A DNA stretch of 64,000 bases, taken from positions 882,122 through 946,121 of the forward strand of contig OZ007022.1 of assembly GCA_963931515.1 (NCBI GenBank). Direction: 5' to 3'. Made by a program: the position numbers and the translations under genes. Below are positions 5,285-62,956 of this stretch, piece by piece; the stretch's first letter is position 1; each line of letters starts with the position of its first letter. The notes beneath the pieces are model-generated. The model saw only the letters and a list, made by a program, of their open reading frames with translations. It had not been told where the DNA came from and did no database searches. The DNA comes from an uncultured Bacilli bacterium (GTDB lineage Bacteria > Bacillota_I > Bacilli_A > RF39 > UBA660).

Positions 5285-6034
5285 TTACTTTTTTAATACT
5301 TTTGTTATATAGTCAAATCCATTTTTTATTTTTTCTTCCGTAGTAATATTTTTACTATAAATTTTTCTTAATTTATCCATTACTAAAGTTTTGCCATCAT
5401 ACATTTCATAAAAGCTAGCATATCCCTTTTCTTTAAAATCAAATATATTTGAAAATGGCTTATTATTTAAAATTGGATCTGTTACCATTTCACTATACTG
5501 CCATACTATATATGGTGATTCAAATTCGGCTCTTGGTGTTTGTGGGTATATGGTTTTCCATTTTTCAAACCAGAGAAAGTGCAATGTTTCATGGGCGCAT
5601 GTTTCTATTAATTGCTGATCACTCATATTAATTGAAACGGAAAAACTAAAACTATCTAAATACCTAGGGAACACAGGTATTAAGCCTACTCTTCCCTCAA
5701 CTATGTCTATGTTATTTGGCCAGCTTATCTTTAAGTAGTTAGATAATGTTTTAAAATAAAGGTCATTGTATGGCTGCCATATTTCATTATATCTTTGAAT
5801 TTCTTTTTCTATTTCATTTTTATGTTTTTCATAACTTTCTCTAACAACATTTTCAATTATTTGGTTTATTTTTTCTTTTGAAAGATTTTTGTCTAGGTTT
5901 TCTAATTTCGGAAAATATTTGATAGTAAAATTATGAATATTAAATAAATCGTCATTTTCATAGTAGGCCCATTTTATAAGTTCTATGTTTTCTTGCAAAG
6001 ACATTTTTCTAAATTTTAGTTTTGGGGTTTTCAT
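5285..6034 (-). CDS. Hypothetical protein with an HExxH motif (CAHETLHFLW); third gene of the Y-family polymerase operon
   Basis: ORF overlaps the preceding small gene by 26 nt; true start may be the internal Met (MSLQENIEL). Confidence 0.5.
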   Translation of the reverse strand: MKTPKLKFRKMSLQENIELIKWAYYENDDLFNIHNFTIKYFPKLENLDKNLSKEKINQIIENVVRESYEKHKNEIEKEIQRYNEIWQPYNDLYFKTLSNYLKISWPNNIDIVEGRVGLIPVFPRYLDSFSFSVSINMSDQQLIETCAHETLHFLWFEKWKTIYPQTPRAEFESPYIVWQYSEMVTDPILNNKPFSNIFDFKEKGYASFYEMYDGKTLVMDKLRKIYSKNITTEEKIKNGFDYITKVLKK

Positions 6035-6239
6035 TAATATTCTCCTTTACATTTTTATTTAATTTGTCATTATTAATATTTATTATATCATTTATTCTAG
6101 TGATTTCGTTTATTTTTTCTTGATAACCTTTTAAGGCCGAAAAGGGAGCAAACTGAGCGGAACGATTTTTTAATGACATTGGTTTTCTTTTTTTAGATAC
6201 ATGATGTGGCATATTTATAATATCATCATAGTTAGGCAT
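6009..6239 (-). CDS. Small protein (76 aa) co-operonic with the Y-family polymerase (YolD-like by position only)
   Basis: Overlaps the polymerase ORF by 8 nt; no motif recognised. Confidence 0.4.
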   Translation of the reverse strand: MPNYDDIINMPHHVSKKRKPMSLKNRSAQFAPFSALKGYQEKINEITRINDIININNDKLNKNVKENINENPKTKI

Positions 6240-7719
6240 GATGGCCTCCTATTTGTTCGTTTCGCTTTTTGGTGGTAGCGACTTTTTCTAAATCCATAAG
6301 TTTTAAAATGGAATTTTTGCCATATTTTTCTTTAATGTTTAAAAGGGTCCCCTGGAGTTTTCTTTCTTTTGCTTCTTCTCTTTTTTCATTTTCTAAAATG
6401 TTAGTTTGTTTTTCTGAATCTGAAAATAAATCTAGTTGATGATATTTTGTTTTATGAATTTCTAATTTTTCATCTGTTACATCAATGGCGGTTAGGTTAA
6501 TTCTTTTGATTAATAGTTTGGGATTAATAATTTTATCATATAGTTTTATTAGGTTATTCATGATTATTTTAGAAGATGATGTTTTATGGGTTAAGGTTAT
6601 GGTCCCGTGAGCATGTTTAGGAATTTTTCTTCCATAAAAGTCAGTGGTTATTTCTCCTTCATAATTATTATTTATGTTTTGAATGTCATAACCAATGGTT
6701 AAGGTTAGTTTATCTGTGACAAGGCTTTTGGCTGTAAGGTCAAGGGCAAGTGAATCAGCCATTTCACAGATAACTAATTTAGTTTCTTTATAATTATATG
6801 GACAATCAAGTACTTGACCTGAGGTTATACATCTATTATTTGGAGTATAGGATTTTATAGACTCTATTGTACATGGCTCATATCCCCAAGCATGATCGAT
6901 TAATAGTTCGGCATTTATACCGAATAATTTATAAAGTAAGTCTTCATTTTGAATAGAACATCTAGCAATATCTCCCATGGTATAGATGCCATACTTTTCT
7001 AATCTTTTGGCTATTCCTTTACCTACCCGCCAAATATCGGTAATTGGTTTATGATACCATATTTGTTTTCGATAAGACGTTTCATCAAGTTTAGCTATTC
7101 TAACACCATATTTGTTTGGCTTTGTGTGTTTGGCAACGATGTCCATTGCAACTTTAGCTAGAAATAAATTGGTACCTATGCCAGCAGTGGCAGTAATACC
7201 TGTTTGTTTATAAATGTCATTAATTATTTTGGTGACAAGTTCTTCTGAGGCAAGGTTATAGTATTTTAAATAATTAGTTATGTCGGCAAATATTTCATCA
7301 ATGGAATATACAAATATGTCATCACTTGATAAATATTTTAGATATATGCTATAGATTTTGGCTGATGTATCTATATAATGAGCCATTCTGGGTTTGGCTA
7401 TTATGAAAGATAATTCTTTGGTTTTATCTTTTTTTAATTCATCATCATTAGATGATCGACCAGTAAATGGTTTATAACTATTTTGTTTTTTTCTTAGTTT
7501 ATTTATTTCTTTGACTTTTGATATTACTTCAAATAGTCTTGCTCTACCACCTACTCCATACTGTTTTAATGATGGGCTTACGGCAAGGCAAATGGTTTTT
7601 TCAGTTCTTTCTTTATCAGCAACAACGAGGTTTGTTTTTAAAGGATCTAATCCTCTTTCTACGCATTCTACTGAAGCATAGAAACTTTTTAAATCGATAC
7701 ATATATATGTCTTTTCCAT
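6232..7719 (-). CDS. Y-family (translesion) DNA polymerase, UmuC/DinB/UvrX-like
   Basis: N-terminus MEKTYICIDLKSFYASVECVERGLDP and palm/fingers region typical of the ImpB/MucB/SamB family; 495 aa. Confidence 0.8.
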   Translation of the reverse strand: MEKTYICIDLKSFYASVECVERGLDPLKTNLVVADKERTEKTICLAVSPSLKQYGVGGRARLFEVISKVKEINKLRKKQNSYKPFTGRSSNDDELKKDKTKELSFIIAKPRMAHYIDTSAKIYSIYLKYLSSDDIFVYSIDEIFADITNYLKYYNLASEELVTKIINDIYKQTGITATAGIGTNLFLAKVAMDIVAKHTKPNKYGVRIAKLDETSYRKQIWYHKPITDIWRVGKGIAKRLEKYGIYTMGDIARCSIQNEDLLYKLFGINAELLIDHAWGYEPCTIESIKSYTPNNRCITSGQVLDCPYNYKETKLVICEMADSLALDLTAKSLVTDKLTLTIGYDIQNINNNYEGEITTDFYGRKIPKHAHGTITLTHKTSSSKIIMNNLIKLYDKIINPKLLIKRINLTAIDVTDEKLEIHKTKYHQLDLFSDSEKQTNILENEKREEAKERKLQGTLLNIKEKYGKNSILKLMDLEKVATTKKRNEQIGGHHA

Positions 7720-42564: not shown

Positions 42565-43485
42565 TTATTCAATTGTGTATGGATTAGACTGACTTCCATC
42601 TCCGCCTGTGATTTTGATTGATGATGAGAGATAAATGGCCGGACGAACACTATGCCCACCACCATCTACTTGACCGTAGGAGCTATTTAATGTTCCATTG
42701 TGATCTACATAGAATGCACCGTTTGTACCCGTACCATTGTTGCTCGGAGATATAGTCCACCAAATGTAACCACTAAACATCCAGGTAGTATTTCTACATG
42801 TACTATAATTATCATTTGTTAAGGAATGAGTGCCACATAAACTAATATTTGAATTTGTACGTAAATATTCTGAAGTTGTAGCTAAACCAATTTTACCATT
42901 CCATATAGTATTTCTTTCAGAATTTATGGTGTTTGCTAAGTCATCGTCATCCCATAATGTTAATCCAACTTTCCAATCATGTGCAACTATTTGATTTTGA
43001 GCTGTTGAATTTAGTCCATTATAATAAGTGCTATTTAAATATGTATTTAGTGTGGATGGACGGGTCCAATTATTTGATCCCGACCTATCCCAATATTGAT
43101 CTCCTATGCTAGCTATTCTCATTATTTTTATTGTTCCATCACATTCTACTGATATTATTCTCCAGCCGGCTGTTTCATTATTAAATGTGACATAATTATT
43201 TGGATTTTGTCCTGTAAAGAAATACCTACACTCATAAGGGTCTTTTTCTAATCCTGCGTTTTCTATTATTTCTTCAGCTGGTGTTTTGGCAATGCAAGTT
43301 GCATATAGTTCATCTATCGCTCCTTGAACATTGGTACTCTCTAAACCACTTTCACTATTATCATACGTAGTTTGATTACTTGGAAAATATGTCATGGCTA
43401 AAACACTCACACCACCACATACAATAAGTCCTGTTATATACCCAGGTAGATATCCAAATACGATTTTTTTTATTTTCTCTTTCAT
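42565..43485 (-). CDS. Secreted/membrane-anchored Cys-containing protein, paralogue A (306 aa)
   Basis: N-terminal TM anchor; conserved blocks ESGLESTNVQGAIDELY, DPYECRYFFTGQNPNNY, AGWRIISVECDG; paralogous to 61656-62579. Confidence 0.5.
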   Translation of the reverse strand: MKEKIKKIVFGYLPGYITGLIVCGGVSVLAMTYFPSNQTTYDNSESGLESTNVQGAIDELYATCIAKTPAEEIIENAGLEKDPYECRYFFTGQNPNNYVTFNNETAGWRIISVECDGTIKIMRIASIGDQYWDRSGSNNWTRPSTLNTYLNSTYYNGLNSTAQNQIVAHDWKVGLTLWDDDDLANTINSERNTIWNGKIGLATTSEYLRTNSNISLCGTHSLTNDNYSTCRNTTWMFSGYIWWTISPSNNGTGTNGAFYVDHNGTLNSSYGQVDGGGHSVRPAIYLSSSIKITGGDGSQSNPYTIE

Positions 43486-43599: not shown

Positions 43600-43833
43600 A
43601 TGATAGGAAAGATTATAAAATATGCAAGAAAACAATCTGGTTTGACGCAAGAGGAGCTTGGCAAGTTAGCTAATATAAATAGAACAACTTTGGGTAATTA
43701 TGAAACGGAGTTTAGACAACCAACTTTTGAGATGATTGAGACTTTGCTTAATAAATGTGGAGTTAAAATATTTTTTGAGATGAGTAATGGTGAAAAATTT
43801 GAAAGTAAGGATGTTTTAAGAAAAGACATTTAA
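43600..43833 (+). CDS. XRE-family HTH transcriptional regulator
   Basis: HTH (ARKQSGLTQEELGKLANINRTTLGNYE). Confidence 0.65.
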   Translation: MIGKIIKYARKQSGLTQEELGKLANINRTTLGNYETEFRQPTFEMIETLLNKCGVKIFFEMSNGEKFESKDVLRKDI

Positions 43834-50083: not shown

Positions 50084-51511
50084 TTAAGTTTGATTTCTAA
50101 GTATTTGATTTGGATTATATTTAGTAATAAATATTGCGGATACGGAGCCACTAACTGTAACTAGAATTAAGCCAAAGCTAAATAATAGAATAATGGTTTT
50201 TGTATCTAATGTTACTTTTAGACTATCTTCATAGTTTTGATTTGCCCTTTGTTCATTTGGTCTTTCGAATCCTCTTCCACCAAAGTTTGCCCTAGTGTTT
50301 TCTGTTTGGGCTTGCTGAGACGCAATTTCGTTTTCAAGCATTTTATTAGTGACTGGCTGACTTAATAGTTTGCCTCCAATTATACCTATTATAAATGCTA
50401 TAACAGTGACGATAAAAAGTTCAGCTAGCAAGCTTAATATTAATTTGACTTTACTCATACCTATAGCTCTTAGAACACCTATTTCGTATTTTCTATCTCT
50501 AATGTTTAACATATTTATAACAGCTAATATAATAGCACCAACAATTAAAATAATGATTAAGAAGGTCATAGAAAAGTTACTGATGTTTTTAATTGGTGTT
50601 AAGGTGTTTGTAATCTCATCTGAGTTATCAGATAAGGTGTAATAATCACTTAATCCTTTTTCTTTTACTTCCTCGGTGTAGGCTTCTAAGTCATCTTGGC
50701 TTTTTAAATAAATAGTAGCGTTTAAACTGTTTGAATTATCAACTTCTTCTAAAATGTTATTGATTACTGTAATATTGGTATAAATTTGGTTTTGAGCATT
50801 TAAGACATTCATGTTCAGAAAATCTTCAGAACTACTGTCACTAGTTGTTTCAAAGATACCGGTTATTTCAAATGTGTAAGTTTTAGAAGAATCAGATGGT
50901 AAATAGAATGTTATTTCATCACCTACTTCTAAATCATTTTGGTTAGCTAACTCTTCACTAATTACGATATGATTTTCTTCGTCATCACTAGTAATCATCG
51001 AACCTGAGGTTATTTTAGAAGTGCCATTTATAAAGTTTTCAATATAAGAGGTATCTGAGTAAGCGGTTATTTTAAAGTCACCTAAGCTTTCCATATTTTG
51101 TTTGTTTTCACCTCGTCCACCAGGCATTTCTCCTTCTGGCGGAGTTTCACTATTATCTTTTGGTTCAAATTTTTCACTCATATCAATAGCATCAATTTCA
51201 TCTGATGATAAACTAGCGTCTAAGGTATAATAATAACTAGATACATAATCAGAGTTGGCATAGTTTTCAATATCGCTTACGCTAAGTTTTGTGTAAGTTG
51301 TGTTTTCATCTCTAAGTTTACTCATGTCTAATCTAAAGGATACAGCTAATTCATTTTTGTTTTTATAGCTTTCGATTAGTTTATTTCCTGATGTGTTTAT
51401 TGATAAGGCGACGGTAGAACTTAGGGCTACTACTAAAACTATTAATCCTATTAAAATGTTTCTTCCTAAATGTCTTTTTATATTAATCCAGGCATTTTTT
51501 ACAATGTACAT
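50084..51511 (-). CDS. ABC transporter permease, FtsX-like (475 aa)
   Basis: N-terminal TM, large extracytoplasmic domain, C-terminal FtsX 3-TM bundle. Confidence 0.75.
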   Translation of the reverse strand: MYIVKNAWINIKRHLGRNILIGLIVLVVALSSTVALSINTSGNKLIESYKNKNELAVSFRLDMSKLRDENTTYTKLSVSDIENYANSDYVSSYYYTLDASLSSDEIDAIDMSEKFEPKDNSETPPEGEMPGGRGENKQNMESLGDFKITAYSDTSYIENFINGTSKITSGSMITSDDEENHIVISEELANQNDLEVGDEITFYLPSDSSKTYTFEITGIFETTSDSSSEDFLNMNVLNAQNQIYTNITVINNILEEVDNSNSLNATIYLKSQDDLEAYTEEVKEKGLSDYYTLSDNSDEITNTLTPIKNISNFSMTFLIIILIVGAIILAVINMLNIRDRKYEIGVLRAIGMSKVKLILSLLAELFIVTVIAFIIGIIGGKLLSQPVTNKMLENEIASQQAQTENTRANFGGRGFERPNEQRANQNYEDSLKVTLDTKTIILLFSFGLILVTVSGSVSAIFITKYNPNQILRNQT

Positions 51512-58155: not shown

Positions 58156-58334
58156 TTTACTACCTCACTATCCATTATTAATTATAATATATTTTTATGT
58201 TTAAAACAACGATATTAAAGATTTTTAGTTTGGTTTACAAAAAATAACAAAAAATAAGAACATTAATAAAGGGTTAAAATGTTCTTATTATGTATTTGAT
58301 TATTCAATTGTGTATTATCGGAGTTCTCCGATAA

Positions 58335-58424
58335 TATACATTATCGTAGATTTTTAGTTATCGGAGAAAATGAAAGAAATCCTTATGATTAAAGGGTTTC
58401 TTTTTGACTTTTCTCCGATAACAA
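58335..58424. repeat. RIT left terminal inverted repeat
   Basis: Reverse complement of 61581-61670 with one mismatch; preceded by an extra 20-bp palindrome (58315-58334, TTATCGGAG/TTCTCCGATAA). Confidence 0.8.
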
Positions 58425-58466
58425 TTATAATAGTTTCCGCTGGCAAAGTGTCAGTAAGGAAGGAGT

Positions 58467-59690
58467 GTGTATATGAATACACAAGATTTTAAAATTTATA
58501 TTAAAAATATTAGGAAGGAGGCATTAGAAATTGGATATTCTATTAAAACGATGGATGGATATTTAGTGATATGGAATAAATTCATTAAATGGAAAAATGA
58601 AATTCATTTTGTATATGATGAAAAAGAATACTCTAAATTTTTGTTTGATTATTATCATTTTGATGTTAGTAAATTTACTAATAAATCTAAGTCTAGACAT
58701 CAACAATTAATGAGATCAAAAAGAATACTAGATAATTTTGATAGTTATAAAATACATATACTTAAAAGAAGCTTGCCTAAAGCATTATATTCTAATTATC
58801 CTAGTAATTGGAATATAATTTTAGATGGTTATTTAAATTATTTAAAAAATGTAAGACAAAATAGCGATAACAGTATTAAAATCAAAGGAGATTATTTAGT
58901 TCATTTGCTATCTTATTTTTATCAAAATAAAATAAATGATTTAAAACAATTATCTAAATTAGATATTACAAATTTTATAAATAAAGTGGTAGAAAAAGGT
59001 AATATTTCCAAAAGAAGAAACTTCTATGTTCTAGGTGACTTTTTAAAATATTTATTTATAGAAAATATTCTACTTGAAGATTTATCTGTTTATGTTCCAA
59101 GAATTAATCGAAGAAAGAAAAGAAAACTACCAACTTATTTAAAACAAGAAAATATTGAAAAGTTGCTTGAAAGCATTCCGAAATTAAAAAAGGTTGATAT
59201 CAGAAATTATGCCATCATCTTACTTGCCGCAAGACTGGGACTTAGACTAAGTGATATTTTAAATATTAAACTAAAAGATATTGATTGGAAAAATAAAAAA
59301 ATAAATATTATACAGCCTAAAACTAATAACTTAAATATACTCCCTTTATCTAAAGAGGTTGGGTGGGCCATTATTGATTATATTAATAAAGCTAGGCCTA
59401 AATGTAATAATGAATACTTGTTCATCAAAATGCATTATCCGTTTGAAAAAATGGAACAATTTACTGATTTTAATAAATATTTTGATAAGTGTGATTTTAA
59501 GCAAAAAGATACAAAAAAAGGAATTCATAATCTAAGACATTCCCTCGCAACCAATCTATTAGATAATGATATTCCTATTCACATTATTTCATCAGTCTTA
59601 GGTCATACATCTACTGATACTACCTCTAATACATATCTAAAGATTGACCTTAAAAATCTTAAAAAAGTATGTTTGGAGGTAGATGAATAA
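58467..59690 (+). CDS. Tyrosine recombinase, RIT subunit A-like (407 aa)
   Basis: Catalytic R..H..R..Y region (HNLRHSLATNLL ... GHTSTDTTSNTYLK). Confidence 0.75.
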   Translation: MYMNTQDFKIYIKNIRKEALEIGYSIKTMDGYLVIWNKFIKWKNEIHFVYDEKEYSKFLFDYYHFDVSKFTNKSKSRHQQLMRSKRILDNFDSYKIHILKRSLPKALYSNYPSNWNIILDGYLNYLKNVRQNSDNSIKIKGDYLVHLLSYFYQNKINDLKQLSKLDITNFINKVVEKGNISKRRNFYVLGDFLKYLFIENILLEDLSVYVPRINRRKKRKLPTYLKQENIEKLLESIPKLKKVDIRNYAIILLAARLGLRLSDILNIKLKDIDWKNKKINIIQPKTNNLNILPLSKEVGWAIIDYINKARPKCNNEYLFIKMHYPFEKMEQFTDFNKYFDKCDFKQKDTKKGIHNLRHSLATNLLDNDIPIHIISSVLGHTSTDTTSNTYLKIDLKNLKKVCLEVDE

Positions 59691-60628
59691 TGCGAGAATA
59701 TAATACCATATTTGATGAATTTATTCAATTTAAACATTTTTTAGGATATAAATATAAAACTGATGAAATAGTTATTAATGAAATAAAAAATTATCTAATA
59801 GAACATAATATTACTAAAATAACTAAAGAAGTTACCGAAGATTATGCGGGGTTAAATACTAATATATCATCTAATACAATAGCCAGAAATATGGGAGTAT
59901 TTAGAGAATTTTGTAATTTTTTAAAATATCAAAAAGATATAGATTGTTATCAAATACCAAACAAAATATATCCACAAAACCATAATAACTTTATTCCTTA
60001 TATATTTTCATATGAAGAAATTAAGTTGATTTATTCTAACTTAAACGAACCACTAAAAGATTATCATTATAGTTACTATAAACAAAAAGCTTATCCTTTA
60101 ATTATTAAAATACTTTATCAAACTGGTATGCGAATCGGAGAACTGTTAAATATTAAGCTTGAAGATTATAATTATGAATTATCTGCGTTTAAACTTACGG
60201 ATACTAAAAATAATGAAGAAAGATATGTGGCTATTTCTGATAAATTAAATGAAGAAATAAATAAATTTGTAACTAAATTTTTCTATAATAAATCAAATGA
60301 TGAATATATTTTTAAAATACACGGAGATTCAGCTACAAAATATTTTAAAAAAGTATTAATGTTATCTAATATTAAAATAACTGATAAAGGGCCTAGACTA
60401 CATGATTTAAGGCATACTTACCTTGTTCATAATATTGATAAAGCTATTAAAGAAAATAGAGATGTAAATCAAATATTACCTATACTAAAAACTCAGATTG
60501 GACATAAAAGTTTAAATTCTATTGCTTATTATTTTCATATTAATAAAGATATATTAGGAACAGTTAATGAAATATCAGAGAACGAACTAGGTTATCTAAT
60601 ACCAAGTATAGGTGAAGATAATGAATAA
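59690..60628 (+). CDS. Tyrosine recombinase, RIT subunit B-like (312 aa)
   Basis: LHDLRHTYLVHNI ... GHKSLNSIAYYFHI; start overlaps the previous stop (ATGA). Confidence 0.75.
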   Translation: MREYNTIFDEFIQFKHFLGYKYKTDEIVINEIKNYLIEHNITKITKEVTEDYAGLNTNISSNTIARNMGVFREFCNFLKYQKDIDCYQIPNKIYPQNHNNFIPYIFSYEEIKLIYSNLNEPLKDYHYSYYKQKAYPLIIKILYQTGMRIGELLNIKLEDYNYELSAFKLTDTKNNEERYVAISDKLNEEINKFVTKFFYNKSNDEYIFKIHGDSATKYFKKVLMLSNIKITDKGPRLHDLRHTYLVHNIDKAIKENRDVNQILPILKTQIGHKSLNSIAYYFHINKDILGTVNEISENELGYLIPSIGEDNE

Positions 60629-61580
60629 AGATTTTTCATATTACTTATCAAAGTTTTTAAAAGACTACTTAATTATAGAAAGAAATATGTCATTACATAC
60701 TGTTCGTTCCTATAAAAAGACATTTCAAACACTTATAGATTATTTAGTAAACATTAAAAATTTTAAGTTACAAAATATCACATTTGAAAATATAGCTAGA
60801 GAAATAATTATAGAGTTTTTAAATTACCTAGAAGATGATAAAAAAAACAGTATTAGAACAAGGAATCAGAGGCTAGCCTGTATAAAATCATTTTATCAGT
60901 ACTGTATGATAGATGAAATAGATAATATTGATAACATCAGAAAAATATTGAGTATTAAAGCAAAAAAAGAAACTAAGAAAGTAATGAGTTATCTTACAGA
61001 AGATGAATTACAAAAATTATTTAATAGTATAGATACAACAACAAATAAAGGTAGAAGGAACTTAACCTTACTCACACTTTTATATGATACAGCAGCTAGA
61101 ACCAGTGAAATTATTAATCTTAAAGTAGAAAATATACATTTAGAAGAAAAATATATAATATTAACTGGAAAAGGTAATAAACAAAGAATAGTATCTATGA
61201 TGGAACAAACAAAAAAATTATTAATTAATTATATTAAAGAAAATCATATAAAAAGTGGCTATTTATTTAATATTAATGGCAACAAAATGAACGAAAGATT
61301 TTTAAGAGATATTGTAAAAGTAACAAATTCATTAGACAAACAAATATCACCACATACATTTAGACATACAAGAGCTGTCCATTTACTCGATAAAGGAGTT
61401 AATATAATATATATTCAGGAATTACTTGGACACACATCAGTTAATACAACGATGGAATATGCGAAAGTAATAGAAAAGTCAAAATTTGAAGCCATTGAAA
61501 AAGCAAATCCTAAGATGGATAATAATTTGCCTGATTGGAATGATGATAAAGATTTACTTAGCCAACTATTGAACTTGTAA
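60612..61580 (+). CDS. Tyrosine recombinase, RIT subunit C-like (322 aa)
   Basis: XerC/D-like N-terminal core-binding region and HTFRHTRAVHLL ... GHTSVNTTMEYAK. Confidence 0.75.
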   Translation: MKIMNKDFSYYLSKFLKDYLIIERNMSLHTVRSYKKTFQTLIDYLVNIKNFKLQNITFENIAREIIIEFLNYLEDDKKNSIRTRNQRLACIKSFYQYCMIDEIDNIDNIRKILSIKAKKETKKVMSYLTEDELQKLFNSIDTTTNKGRRNLTLLTLLYDTAARTSEIINLKVENIHLEEKYIILTGKGNKQRIVSMMEQTKKLLINYIKENHIKSGYLFNINGNKMNERFLRDIVKVTNSLDKQISPHTFRHTRAVHLLDKGVNIIYIQELLGHTSVNTTMEYAKVIEKSKFEAIEKANPKMDNNLPDWNDDKDLLSQLLNL

Positions 61581-61670
61581 TTGTTATCGGAGAAAAGTCA
61601 AAAAGAAACCCTTTAATCATAAGGATTTCTTTCATTTTCTCCGATAACTAAAAATCTACGATAATGTGTA
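61581..61670. repeat. RIT right terminal inverted repeat
   Basis: Inverted copy of 58335-58424; its outer 15 bp supply the last four codons and stop of the flanking gene. Confidence 0.8.
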
Positions 61671-62579
61671 AGGGTCTGACTCAGTTCCGGTTCCTGATAA
61701 TTTTAGGTCTGAGGAAAGATAGAGAACAGGAAGAATATTATTTGAAACTCTTGGAAGAGTATCATAATAAGAGCCTGTAATTGGTCCACAATATACATAA
61801 TTACTCATATTTTGAGATTTTGTCAAGGTCCACCAATATTCGTCGCTTTGGCTTACATCTAACCAACTAGTAGATTCACATGTATGATTAAAAACCGAAT
61901 TATCATAATACAAATCATATGTACCACATTCTTCTATATTAGAATTAATTCTTATATATTCACTTAATGTTGCTAAAGCAATTTCCCCATTCCATGTTGT
62001 ATTATTTTCATCATTTATTTGGTCGGCTAAATCATTATTGTTTTCGTTTAATCCTCCTATGCTAAAGTCGTGAGCAACAATTTGATTTTGAGCTGTTGAT
62101 GTTAAACTATTATAATATGTGTTGTTTAAATAAGTGTTCAAATCTGCTGGACGATTCCAATTGGTTGAATTTGAACTATCCCATGCCATACCTCCTATAC
62201 TTTCATTCCTTATTATCTTTATGCTTCCATCACATTCTACTGATATAATTCTCCAGCCGGCTTGTTCATTATTAAATGTTATATAGTTATTTGGGTTTTG
62301 CCCAGTAAAGAAATATCTACATTCATATGGATCTTTTTCTAAATCTACTTTTTCAAGCATTTGCTCTCCTGTTGTTGGTTCCTTTGTACATTCTGTATAA
62401 AGTTCATCTATTGCTTCTTGAACATTATTTGATTCTAAGCCACTTTCAGTATTACTATAAAACACTTCATTACTTGGGAATGTTATAGCAGCATATACGG
62501 CTACTCCACTTATTAAAAGTCCTCCTATGATAAAAGCGATTAAATTTGTTTTTAAATATCTCTTTATATTTTGTTTCAT
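61656..62579 (-). CDS. Secreted/membrane-anchored Cys-containing protein, paralogue B (307 aa); last codons supplied by the RIT repeat
   Basis: Same conserved blocks as paralogue A; ends ...DPYTLS* where the final codons lie in the RIT repeat; the displaced native end (YTIE*, plus terminator) sits at 58262-58314. Confidence 0.55.
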   Translation of the reverse strand: MKQNIKRYLKTNLIAFIIGGLLISGVAVYAAITFPSNEVFYSNTESGLESNNVQEAIDELYTECTKEPTTGEQMLEKVDLEKDPYECRYFFTGQNPNNYITFNNEQAGWRIISVECDGSIKIIRNESIGGMAWDSSNSTNWNRPADLNTYLNNTYYNSLTSTAQNQIVAHDFSIGGLNENNNDLADQINDENNTTWNGEIALATLSEYIRINSNIEECGTYDLYYDNSVFNHTCESTSWLDVSQSDEYWWTLTKSQNMSNYVYCGPITGSYYDTLPRVSNNILPVLYLSSDLKLSGTGTESDPYTLS

Positions 62580-62740: not shown

Positions 62741-62956
62741 ATGAAGATAAATGCTTTAGATTACGATTCAAAAGAACTTTTTAAGATAATTAGAGAATGG
62801 TCTGAACTTACTCAAGAGGAGTTTGCGAAGAAGATTAATGTTTCTAAGGGAACTGTTCAAAATTATGAGCAAGGAAAAAGAAATTATACTTTTAAAAGTT
62901 TAATGGAAATATGTAAGAAGAGTAATATTAATATAATTTTTGAAAAGAAAAAATAA
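62741..62956 (+). CDS. XRE-family HTH transcriptional regulator (71 aa)
   Basis: HTH (WSELTQEEFAKKINVSKGTVQNYEQG); divergent from paralogue B. Confidence 0.6.
   Translation: MKINALDYDSKELFKIIREWSELTQEEFAKKINVSKGTVQNYEQGKRNYTFKSLMEICKKSNINIIFEKKK

Follow-up and report, generated by a model that had tools for sequence, protein, structure and literature searches.

A 64,000-bp stretch of contig OZ007022.1 from an uncultured Bacilli bacterium (hereafter the window) carries a recombinase-in-trio (RIT) element inserted into the last codons of a DUF6273-type gene. By its gene content the element is an intact RIT and a new representative of this known class, and identical copies at other loci point to recent activity. 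The element is strictly site-specific, entering at one codon position near the 3' ends of a family of surface-protein genes (DUF6273 type), and we think it likely that it moves via a palindromic joint containing two core sites. The window and its relatives amount to a natural experiment, with identical copies, many sites, two arrangements and readable 6-bp records, which together yield a precise target, candidate binding sites and a concrete, testable model of movement.

Three recombinase genes identify a RIT element

The element resembles other RITs in its ritA-ritB-ritC gene order, its overlapping genes (encoding ~405, 312 and 319 amino acids here), its length of ~3.4 kb without cargo, its terminal inverted repeats and its several identical copies per genome. 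Gene overlaps of 4-8 bp are described for RIT elements (PMC3414803), and the overlaps found here are given in Table 1. All three open reading frames (ORFs) match the Pfam family Phage_integrase, with E values of 1e-29 (ritA), 2e-18 (ritB) and 1e-32 (ritC). An alignment of the three proteins shows the R-K-H-R-H-Y residues conserved in each, at R258, K283, H352, R355, H378 and Y388 in RitA numbering. In BLASTP comparisons the proteins correspond position for position to a trio from the Cupriavidus necator plasmid pHG1 (NC_005241 51476-54721), with E values of 1.7e-50 (A-A), 1.3e-38 (B-B) and 1.1e-61 (C-C), whereas pairs from non-corresponding positions all score 1e-13 or weaker. Identity to the pHG1 proteins is 23-31%. 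A three-recombinase cluster on a Bacillus sp. S3 plasmid likewise corresponds gene for gene to ritA, ritB and ritC. These correspondences bear out the RIT assignment made in an earlier note on this DNA. Plasmid pHG1 was singled out as RIT-rich by Van Houdt et al. (PMC3414803); the presence of the trio compared here in that paper's table is unconfirmed. A search of NCBIfam returned no RIT-specific model and only Xer matches, all of them sub-threshold.

In an AlphaFold model of RitA, helical bundles at residues 5-101 and 114-198 precede the catalytic domain, and Xer structures align over ~290 of 407 residues. The model agrees with the two sequential core-binding (CB) domains reported for RitA (PMC8138268), although at its low confidence (mean predicted local distance difference test, pLDDT, 64; predicted template modelling score, pTM, 0.37) it does not establish them. 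Comparison with solved structures shows RitC to be Xer-like, with ~40 residues after the catalytic tyrosine, of which the last ~23 lie outside the XerC-like alignment; an extra conserved C-terminal helix has been described in RitC (PMC8138268). The "Tyrovirus" phages, which also have three recombinases, were considered as relatives and rejected because their recombinase genes are dispersed.

The element replaces the end of its target gene

The target gene was placed in the DUF6273 family through its homologues, the window copy itself giving no direct Pfam match. Its final two codons and stop, TTA TCG TAG (Leu-Ser-stop), lie within the right repeat of the element. Joining position 58314 to 61671, with 58315-61670 removed, restores GAC CCT TAC ACA ATT GAA TAA, which encodes DPYTIE and a stop. 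The last 15 nt of this rebuilt end, TACACAATTGAATAA, are identical to the end (42565-42579) of paralogue A, a second such gene in the window whose site is unoccupied and whose protein is 53% identical to that of the target. The insertion point falls between DPYT and IE, two codons past the proline codon. The earlier note had proposed an insertion in the last codons of the gene, an end in DPYTLS built from codons of the right repeat, and a displaced YTIE end with its hairpin terminator beyond the element, and reconstruction of the empty site upholds all three proposals. The displaced terminator (Table 1) falls below the G+C criterion of our terminator scan.

The same note held that the gene had been parted from its stop and terminator. 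The native ones are indeed displaced, but the gene is not left without either: judged from its sequence, it retains a stop (LS-stop, from the terminal 9-mer) and a terminator-like hairpin ~25 nt beyond it, both contributed by the element. This hairpin, inside the repeat, likely acts as a terminator for the target gene. Because the element end substitutes for the displaced gene end (LS-stop in place of IE-stop, plus the hairpin), the insertion is probably almost harmless. The element has the look of a transposon made nearly harmless by design: its targets are the final codons of genes in a multigene family, and it comes with a stop and a terminator-like hairpin of its own.

A small divergent HTH_3/XRE-type gene stands beside each of the DUF6273-like paralogues in the window (Table 1), and the pairing recurs in L074 and L075, two of the comparison loci described below.

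Table 1. Positions of the element, its parts and associated features (window coordinates unless a locus is named).
Feature	Position	Strand	Details
RIT element, whole	58315-61664		3,350 bp (3.35 kb); three ORFs only, without cargo
ritA	58473-59690	+	405 aa from ATG; 407 aa from GTG at 58467
ritB	59690-60628	+	312 aa; 1-bp overlap with ritA
ritC	60621-61580	+	319 aa; alternative start at 60612; 8-bp overlap with ritB
Promoter-like site for ritA	58404-58431	+	TTGACT-16-TATAAT; 11/12 matches; overlaps 9-mer c
Outer 6-bp coupling/crossover sequence	58309-58314		TGTGTA (TACACA in gene sense); identical to 61665-61670
Palindrome x-TT-y	58315-58334		x (TTATCGGAG)-TT-y (CTCCGATAA); 20 bp; read as two left arms of two core sites
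Inner spacer	58335-58340		TATACA; between y and a; same word is the gene-side spacer at L035, L038 and L040
Left inverted repeat proper	58341-58430		90 bp; 9-mers a 58341-58349, b 58358-58366, c 58413-58421 (inverted)
Inward terminator-like hairpin, left repeat	58372-58404		From terminator scan
Right inverted repeat proper	61575-61664		c' 61584-61592, b' 61639-61647, a' 61656-61664
Hairpin in right repeat, facing element interior	61601-61633		From terminator scan and RNA fold
Gene-side 6-bp coupling sequence	61665-61670		TGTGTA (TACACA in gene sense, Tyr-Thr codons)
Target gene	61656-62579	-	307 aa; N-terminal hydrophobic segment; now ends in DPYTLS-stop
Displaced last codons	58300-58308	-	ATT GAA TAA (I E stop); downstream target arm; identical to paralogue A 42565-42573
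Displaced native terminator	58247-58289	-	12-bp stem hairpin and U-run; -14.5 kcal/mol, z-score -3.8
Paralogue A, site unoccupied	42565-43485	-	AAT CCA TAC ACA / ATT GAA TAA at 42565-42585 (slash, insertion point)
HTH_3/XRE-type gene beside paralogue A	43600-43833	+	77 aa
HTH_3/XRE-type gene beside target gene	62741-62956	+	71 aa
IS4-like element, L036 (same as L002)	5976-7529		Locus coordinates
IS4-like element, L038	6212-7384		Locus coordinates
IS4-like element, L064	4015-5184		Locus coordinates

Anatomy of the element ends

Inverted arms of 96 nt (58335-58430 and 61575-61670) with 98% complementarity bound the element; inside them lie the repeats at 58335-58424 and 61581-61670 between which three tandem tyrosine recombinases had previously been noted. 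The outermost 6 nt of each arm (TATACA and TGTGTA) are spacers and fall outside the repeat proper. Read from the outside inwards, each repeat consists of 9-mer a (TTATCGTAG), 8 nt, 9-mer b (TTATCGGAG followed by AAAA), a 13-bp hairpin with a T-run, and 9-mer c (inverted TTATCGGAG). The terminal 9-mer TTATCGTAG is a variant of TTATCGGAG, and all six exact copies of TTATCGGAG in the window lie within the element ends. The scan found a terminator-like hairpin on the inward-reading strand of both repeats (2 found against 0.4 expected).

The left end carries in addition the palindrome x-TT-y and a 6-bp spacer. Because of this extra segment, y-TATACA-a (58326-58349) makes up a complete core-like site, CTCCGATAA-TATACA-TTATCGTAG, which is nearly the reverse complement of the predicted end-to-end junction CTACGATAA-TGTGTA-TTATCGGAG. 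The hexamer TGTGTA, reported earlier at both outer junctions, is found at each; the match extends over exactly 6 bp and the adjoining bases differ. The left repeat also contains the promoter-like site (Table 1), which lies a short way upstream of ritA and may drive it, possibly with autoregulation. The scan listed no promoter-like site in the right repeat, where the second hexamer is altered (TACAA vs TATAA) by one of the two mismatches between the repeats.

Identical copies occupy a constant codon position

The element was compared across ~78 loci (given L-numbers), with copies from several strains. A scan of genome contigs yielded 26 related three-recombinase elements in metagenome-assembled genomes of uncultured Bacilli or "Tenericutes", many of them on element-sized contigs. 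In the collection, 433 indexed blocks contain the exact RitB protein, and in long-read assemblies a single 1.5-Mb contig can carry as many as three copies. Over the 3,324 bp from a to a' the window copy and L035 do not differ at any position (0 differences); the same is true within L038-L041 and within L074-L076, and all of these copies are at different loci. No fewer than 12 different sites carry such identical copies in the genomes of related uncultured Bacilli, and on this evidence the element is recently active and mobile. Because these contexts are unrelated, the inverted repeats belong to the element, which disposes of the possibility, raised in the earlier note, that they form part of a larger host duplication. 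The many identical copies may hint at how the poorly understood RIT class moves.

The insertion point is the same at all 23 distinct sites (23/23): it lies two codons past a CCN that never varies, and the codon that follows specifies Ile, Leu or Val. The encoded target motif is G-x-G-T/S-x-x-D/N-P-Y/F-x, with the element entering before I/L/V. These 23 sites span subfamilies with differing 9-mers (CGTAG, CATAG, CACAA, CCGTT and CAGGG), and those target genes that have Pfam matches belong to DUF6273. A stop is reached within 3-5 codons, from the first 9-mer of each element or the bases directly after it. The downstream arm of the target has the consensus (A/T)TA NNN TA(A/G), loosely like TTATCGTAG, a likeness for which composition and stop codons could account. 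The element ends appear to mimic this downstream arm.

The native gene ends at L032 and L037 (downstream flanks ATATCATAG) read ATA TCA TAG (Ile-Ser-stop), nearly the same as TTATCATAG, the terminal 9-mer of another RIT subfamily. At L014 (131-210) an L012-type element meets, at its terminal 9-mer, the palindrome end of another element; because RITs of different subfamilies stand in tandem at this one gene end, an occupied site stays a target. Two different RIT gene trios lie ~0.5 kb apart in L059 (1-6689). In L077 (3380-4123), the L035 site from another sample, ritB is called at 247 aa rather than 312, which suggests a decaying copy.

Two arrangements of the palindrome

The 20-bp palindrome that the earlier note placed outside the left repeat is present there, and belongs to the element rather than to the host. 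A host sequence or a chance remnant was rejected as its origin, since its sequence co-varies with the subfamily 9-mer (CGGAG, CATAG, CAGGG, CTGTT or CACCA) and it is absent from the unoccupied paralogue site. It always lies away from the coding end of the gene. In the subfamily of the window it is found on the ritA side at five sites (the window, L033, L037, L039 and L076) and on the ritC side at eight (L032, L035, L038, L040, L041, L048, L074/75 and L002/L036, the last displaced by an insertion sequence, IS). In 12 of 13 copies the rit-sense strand reads TT at the palindrome centre, at whichever end the palindrome stands. If the two arrangements arose mainly by inverting the segment between the repeats, this centre would be flipped; since TT is kept in the rit sense on the ritA and ritC sides alike, inversion was rejected as their main source.

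L002 at first seemed to have no palindrome. This reading was rejected: an IS4-like element with an 8-bp target duplication (GATAATGT) has parted a' from the palindrome. IS4-like elements (DDE_Tnp_1, 390-393 aa, ends ...ACGGACAGTTTT) lie directly against RIT core sites in three loci (Table 1). The 8-bp duplication at L036 (GATAATGT) spans the end of 9-mer a' and the spacer, and at both L036 and L038 the IS4-like end lies exactly 11 nt from a CTCCGATAA 9-mer. The IS4-like element may target RIT ends.

Six-bp spacers as probable traces of former sites

At 11 of 22 sites the 6-mer on the gene side is the same as that on the downstream side; at the other 11 the two differ by 1-3 bases. Because identity is limited to this half, TGTGTA in the window behaves, as far as the junction sequences tell, as a 6-bp crossover or coupling sequence and not as a target duplication made by a transposase. 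Read towards the repeat, every inner spacer opens like the Tyr, Phe or, in one case, Trp codon of the target: 16 start with TAY or TTY, and one is TGGACA (L012). Inner spacers also recur as gene-side words at sites where the element has the opposite arrangement. In the window TATACA is the inner spacer and TACACA the gene-side one; L035, whose element is identical to that of the window, has TACACA as its inner spacer and TATACA on the gene side. Similarly, TTTGTG is the inner spacer in L040, L041 and L048 and the gene-side word at L039, and TACACG is the inner spacer in L032 and the gene-side word at L033.

The clearest case is that of L075 and L076, identical elements on one 77-kb contig. L075 has TATACC on the gene side, TATATA as its inner spacer and TACACC downstream; L076 has TATCAA on the gene side, TATACC as its inner spacer and TATATA downstream. 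Where the foreign spacer word can be told, it stands on the downstream side (L076 and L041).

Proposed mechanism of movement

We propose that the excised form is a circle closed by a palindromic joint, IRR..a'-S1-x-TT-y-S2-a..IRL, where IRR and IRL are the right and left inverted repeats and S1 and S2 are 6-bp spacers. The joint would hold two back-to-back cores, each consisting of CTCCGATAA, a 6-bp spacer and TTATCGTAG. For the element in the window it would read CTACGATAA-TGTGTA-TTATCGGAG-TT-CTCCGATAA-TATACA-TTATCGTAG, and the empty site would read GACCCTTACACAATTGAATAA. Either core could recombine with a chromosomal target of the form [...GAY CCN][TWY NNN][ATH...], which encodes P-Y/F-x followed by I at the ends of DUF6273-type genes. 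Integration through S1 would leave the palindrome on the ritA side, as in the window, and integration through S2 would leave it on the ritC side. Both routes would join the gene end to a long inverted repeat, whose first 9-mer, TTA TCG TAG, would provide a two-codon tail and stop, and whose internal hairpin is a likely terminator.

The 6-bp spacers would act as coupling sequences, as in Tn916 and Tn554, without needing to match the target. The spacer of the unused core would persist as the inner spacer (TATACA in the window) and so record an earlier insertion site. Such a circle, integrating via S1 or S2, predicts both arrangements exactly as they are seen. In L076 the two non-native words, TATACC and TATATA, are both found in L075 and stand in the slots that the model predicts. 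We infer the circular intermediate, and likewise the position of strand exchange, the assignment of Rit proteins to arms and any choice between cut-out and copy-out movement.

Several observations weigh against this model. The excised-circle junction of a single element (a'-6-x-TT-y-6-a) was not found by a regular-expression search of the ~78 loci, which returned only the L014 tandem of two different elements and the IS-displaced palindrome. A search for an empty allele of the window site, using the rebuilt protein ending in DPYTIE, recovered only paralogues of at most 64% identity, and no polymorphic pair of empty and occupied alleles was recovered for any occupied site. The centre of the palindrome at L002/L036 is AA, so that interior inversion also occurs or the copy history is more complex, and the relative at L024 has no palindrome, yet has perfect 6-bp repeats. 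The gene-side arm (GGAACTGAGTCAGACCCT) bears no likeness to the 9-mers. With a spacer vocabulary as small as TAY/TTY plus NNN, some matches could be coincidence; the copies come from several strains, so that links between donor and recipient are not proven lineages; and the direction of transfer between L075 and L076 is not readable.

Further searches bear on the same points. The loci examined contained neither a same-element tandem nor a solo palindrome footprint, and a metagenome scan with the 20-bp palindrome gave only a single ordinary junction (L048). The element-sized contigs L049-L053 end at the repeats. The window site is occupied on every contig with the exact uppS neighbour, with no empty allele among them. 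The paralogue A site is empty on every contig with the exact neighbouring penicillin-binding protein (PBP) gene, and so in all strains sampled, although it shares its 6-mer and downstream arm with the occupied site (15/15 nt).

Alternative explanations

One alternative is that the same RIT recombines through its outer junctions only. The palindrome and the inner core-like site would then serve for accessory binding, as architectural or regulatory elements, and the two arrangements would be stable isoforms or the products of occasional rearrangement. The circle has not been observed, and the clean 6-bp repeats of the palindrome-less L024 imply that one core may suffice; in a second subfamily, moreover, nearly all sampled copies have the palindrome on the ritA side. 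This explanation is nonetheless unlikely. No difference separates oppositely arranged elements over 3,324 bp, which implies frequent interconversion; the TT at the centre keeps its orientation with respect to the rit genes; and the inner spacers are target-like words in gene sense that match sites of the opposite arrangement.

The joint might instead act as folded DNA. Here a single-stranded or cruciform intermediate would form in which the ~230-bp joint, or the repeat pairs, fold, with a' annealed to a and x to y. The single core so formed, partly unpaired at its centre, would be similar to CTX-phage attP(+) or integron attC, and one strand exchange followed by replication would complete insertion. 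The predicted joint is a nearly perfect palindrome, and in most cases S1 resembles S2 in reverse complement without being identical to it. RIT DNA in a Sphingobium mobilome was protected from exonuclease without a detectable circle junction, and hairpin intermediates were proposed (PMC5737581). Short reads cannot resolve a palindromic junction, however, which would equally explain why the junction is missing in that study. The double-stranded model accounts for all observations. We regard a folded intermediate for this element as quite improbable. The broader proposal, that RITs generally are target-specific transposons with a long palindromic joint of two inverted cores that acts folded as a hairpin or cruciform in the manner of integron attC and CTX-phage attP(+), replication completing a single strand exchange, we hold to be rather unlikely. 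If true, it would explain the exonuclease-protected Sphingobium RIT DNA without a circle junction and might explain the need for three recombinases, some serving the 9-mer arms and others the gene-side arm, which is unrelated to them.

Finally, a domesticated invertible switch of the shufflon or phase-variation type, controlling the adjacent surface-protein gene, is scarcely credible and already largely refuted: long inverted repeats around recombinase genes beside surface-protein genes, a promoter-like site in one repeat and the resemblance of L036 to an interior inversion would fit it, but identical copies occupy at least 12 unrelated loci, the element sits at the 3' end of its target genes with inward-facing terminator-like hairpins, in 12 of 13 copies the interior and the palindrome centre have the same relative orientation, and all copies at the window site share one orientation. 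We retain the double-core joint as the preferred reading.

Comparison with other elements

RIT elements (Van Houdt 2009/2012; Ricker 2013) are said to have been first described in Cupriavidus metallidurans CH34 and to be abundant on pHG1. They are widespread, yet their movement has not been reproduced and their sites have not been defined in PMC3414803, PMC5737581 and PMC10214605. For RIT binding sites the outcome was "no convincing result" (PMC3414803), the mechanism was not deduced (PMC5737581), and target specificity, empty site and movement are entered as "NT" in Table 1 of a 2023 paper (PMC10214605). Our literature search found nothing newer on RIT sites or movement than these three papers. 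As far as we have checked, three things are new: the specificity for one site, the reading of the ends as a double core and the record kept in the spacers. Part of the anatomy may already stand in Ricker 2013. The element differs from the RIT archetype in having repeats of 90 bp, where 34 bp is quoted (PMC10214605), and from prior accounts in two respects: its ends break down into 9-mer arms and 6-bp spacers, and it keeps strictly to a target within a coding motif.

An "overlapping palindromic sequence" has been described at one RIT end (PMC3414803). In the pHG1 cluster (L046 3282-3342; NC_005241 ~51305-51365) the left 35-bp inverted repeat overlaps at its start with a perfect palindrome of 32 bp, TAGCGCAAATGTGCTG/CAGCACATTTGCGCTA. 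RITs in general may possess such an additional palindrome at one end. The a-b...c layout recurs in the RIT of the Bacillus sp. S3 plasmid (L047 3332-3460 and 6716-6834), with the 10-mer TTATGCAAAG as its unit; the inverted repeat there runs ~30 nt past a, and the element adjoins a group II intron maturase gene.

The Tn554 family, the strand-biased circularizing (SE) elements and the GInts are, like the present element, site-specific tyrosine-recombinase transposons. Tn554 and SE elements carry 6 bp of donor flank into the new site (PMC10214605), and the junction spacers here, which differ at 11 of 22 sites, recall this donor-derived 6 bp. Unlike the present element, with its three recombinases and long repeats, Tn554 has two recombinases, TnpA and TnpB, with the non-recombinase TnpC and no terminal inverted repeats. 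SE elements and GInts have four genes, including non-recombinase partners (GinC/Tfp and GinD/Srap), and cargo, in contrast to the three recombinase ORFs alone found here.

In Tn916 and Tn1549 the circular intermediate contains a heterologous 6-bp spacer that is left at one new junction. The mix of identical and non-identical 6-bp flanks seen here is similar to these coupling sequences. Tn916 differs in being conjugative, with one integrase and Xis, AT-rich bent targets and no double core, whereas the present element enters at one codon position. Lambda-like integrases and those of integrative and conjugative elements (ICEs) insert at the 3' end of a tRNA or protein gene and rebuild it, and here too the displaced gene end is made good by the end of the element; the recombinases, however, are three and Xer-like, in place of one arm-binding integrase. 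The element can have many sites per genome and be multicopy because its target motif is common to a multigene family. Xer-exploiting elements of the CTX-phage type share two inverted core-type sites and Xer-like recombinases with the present element, but CTX phage relies on host XerCD and a folded single strand, whereas the recombinases here are encoded by the element.

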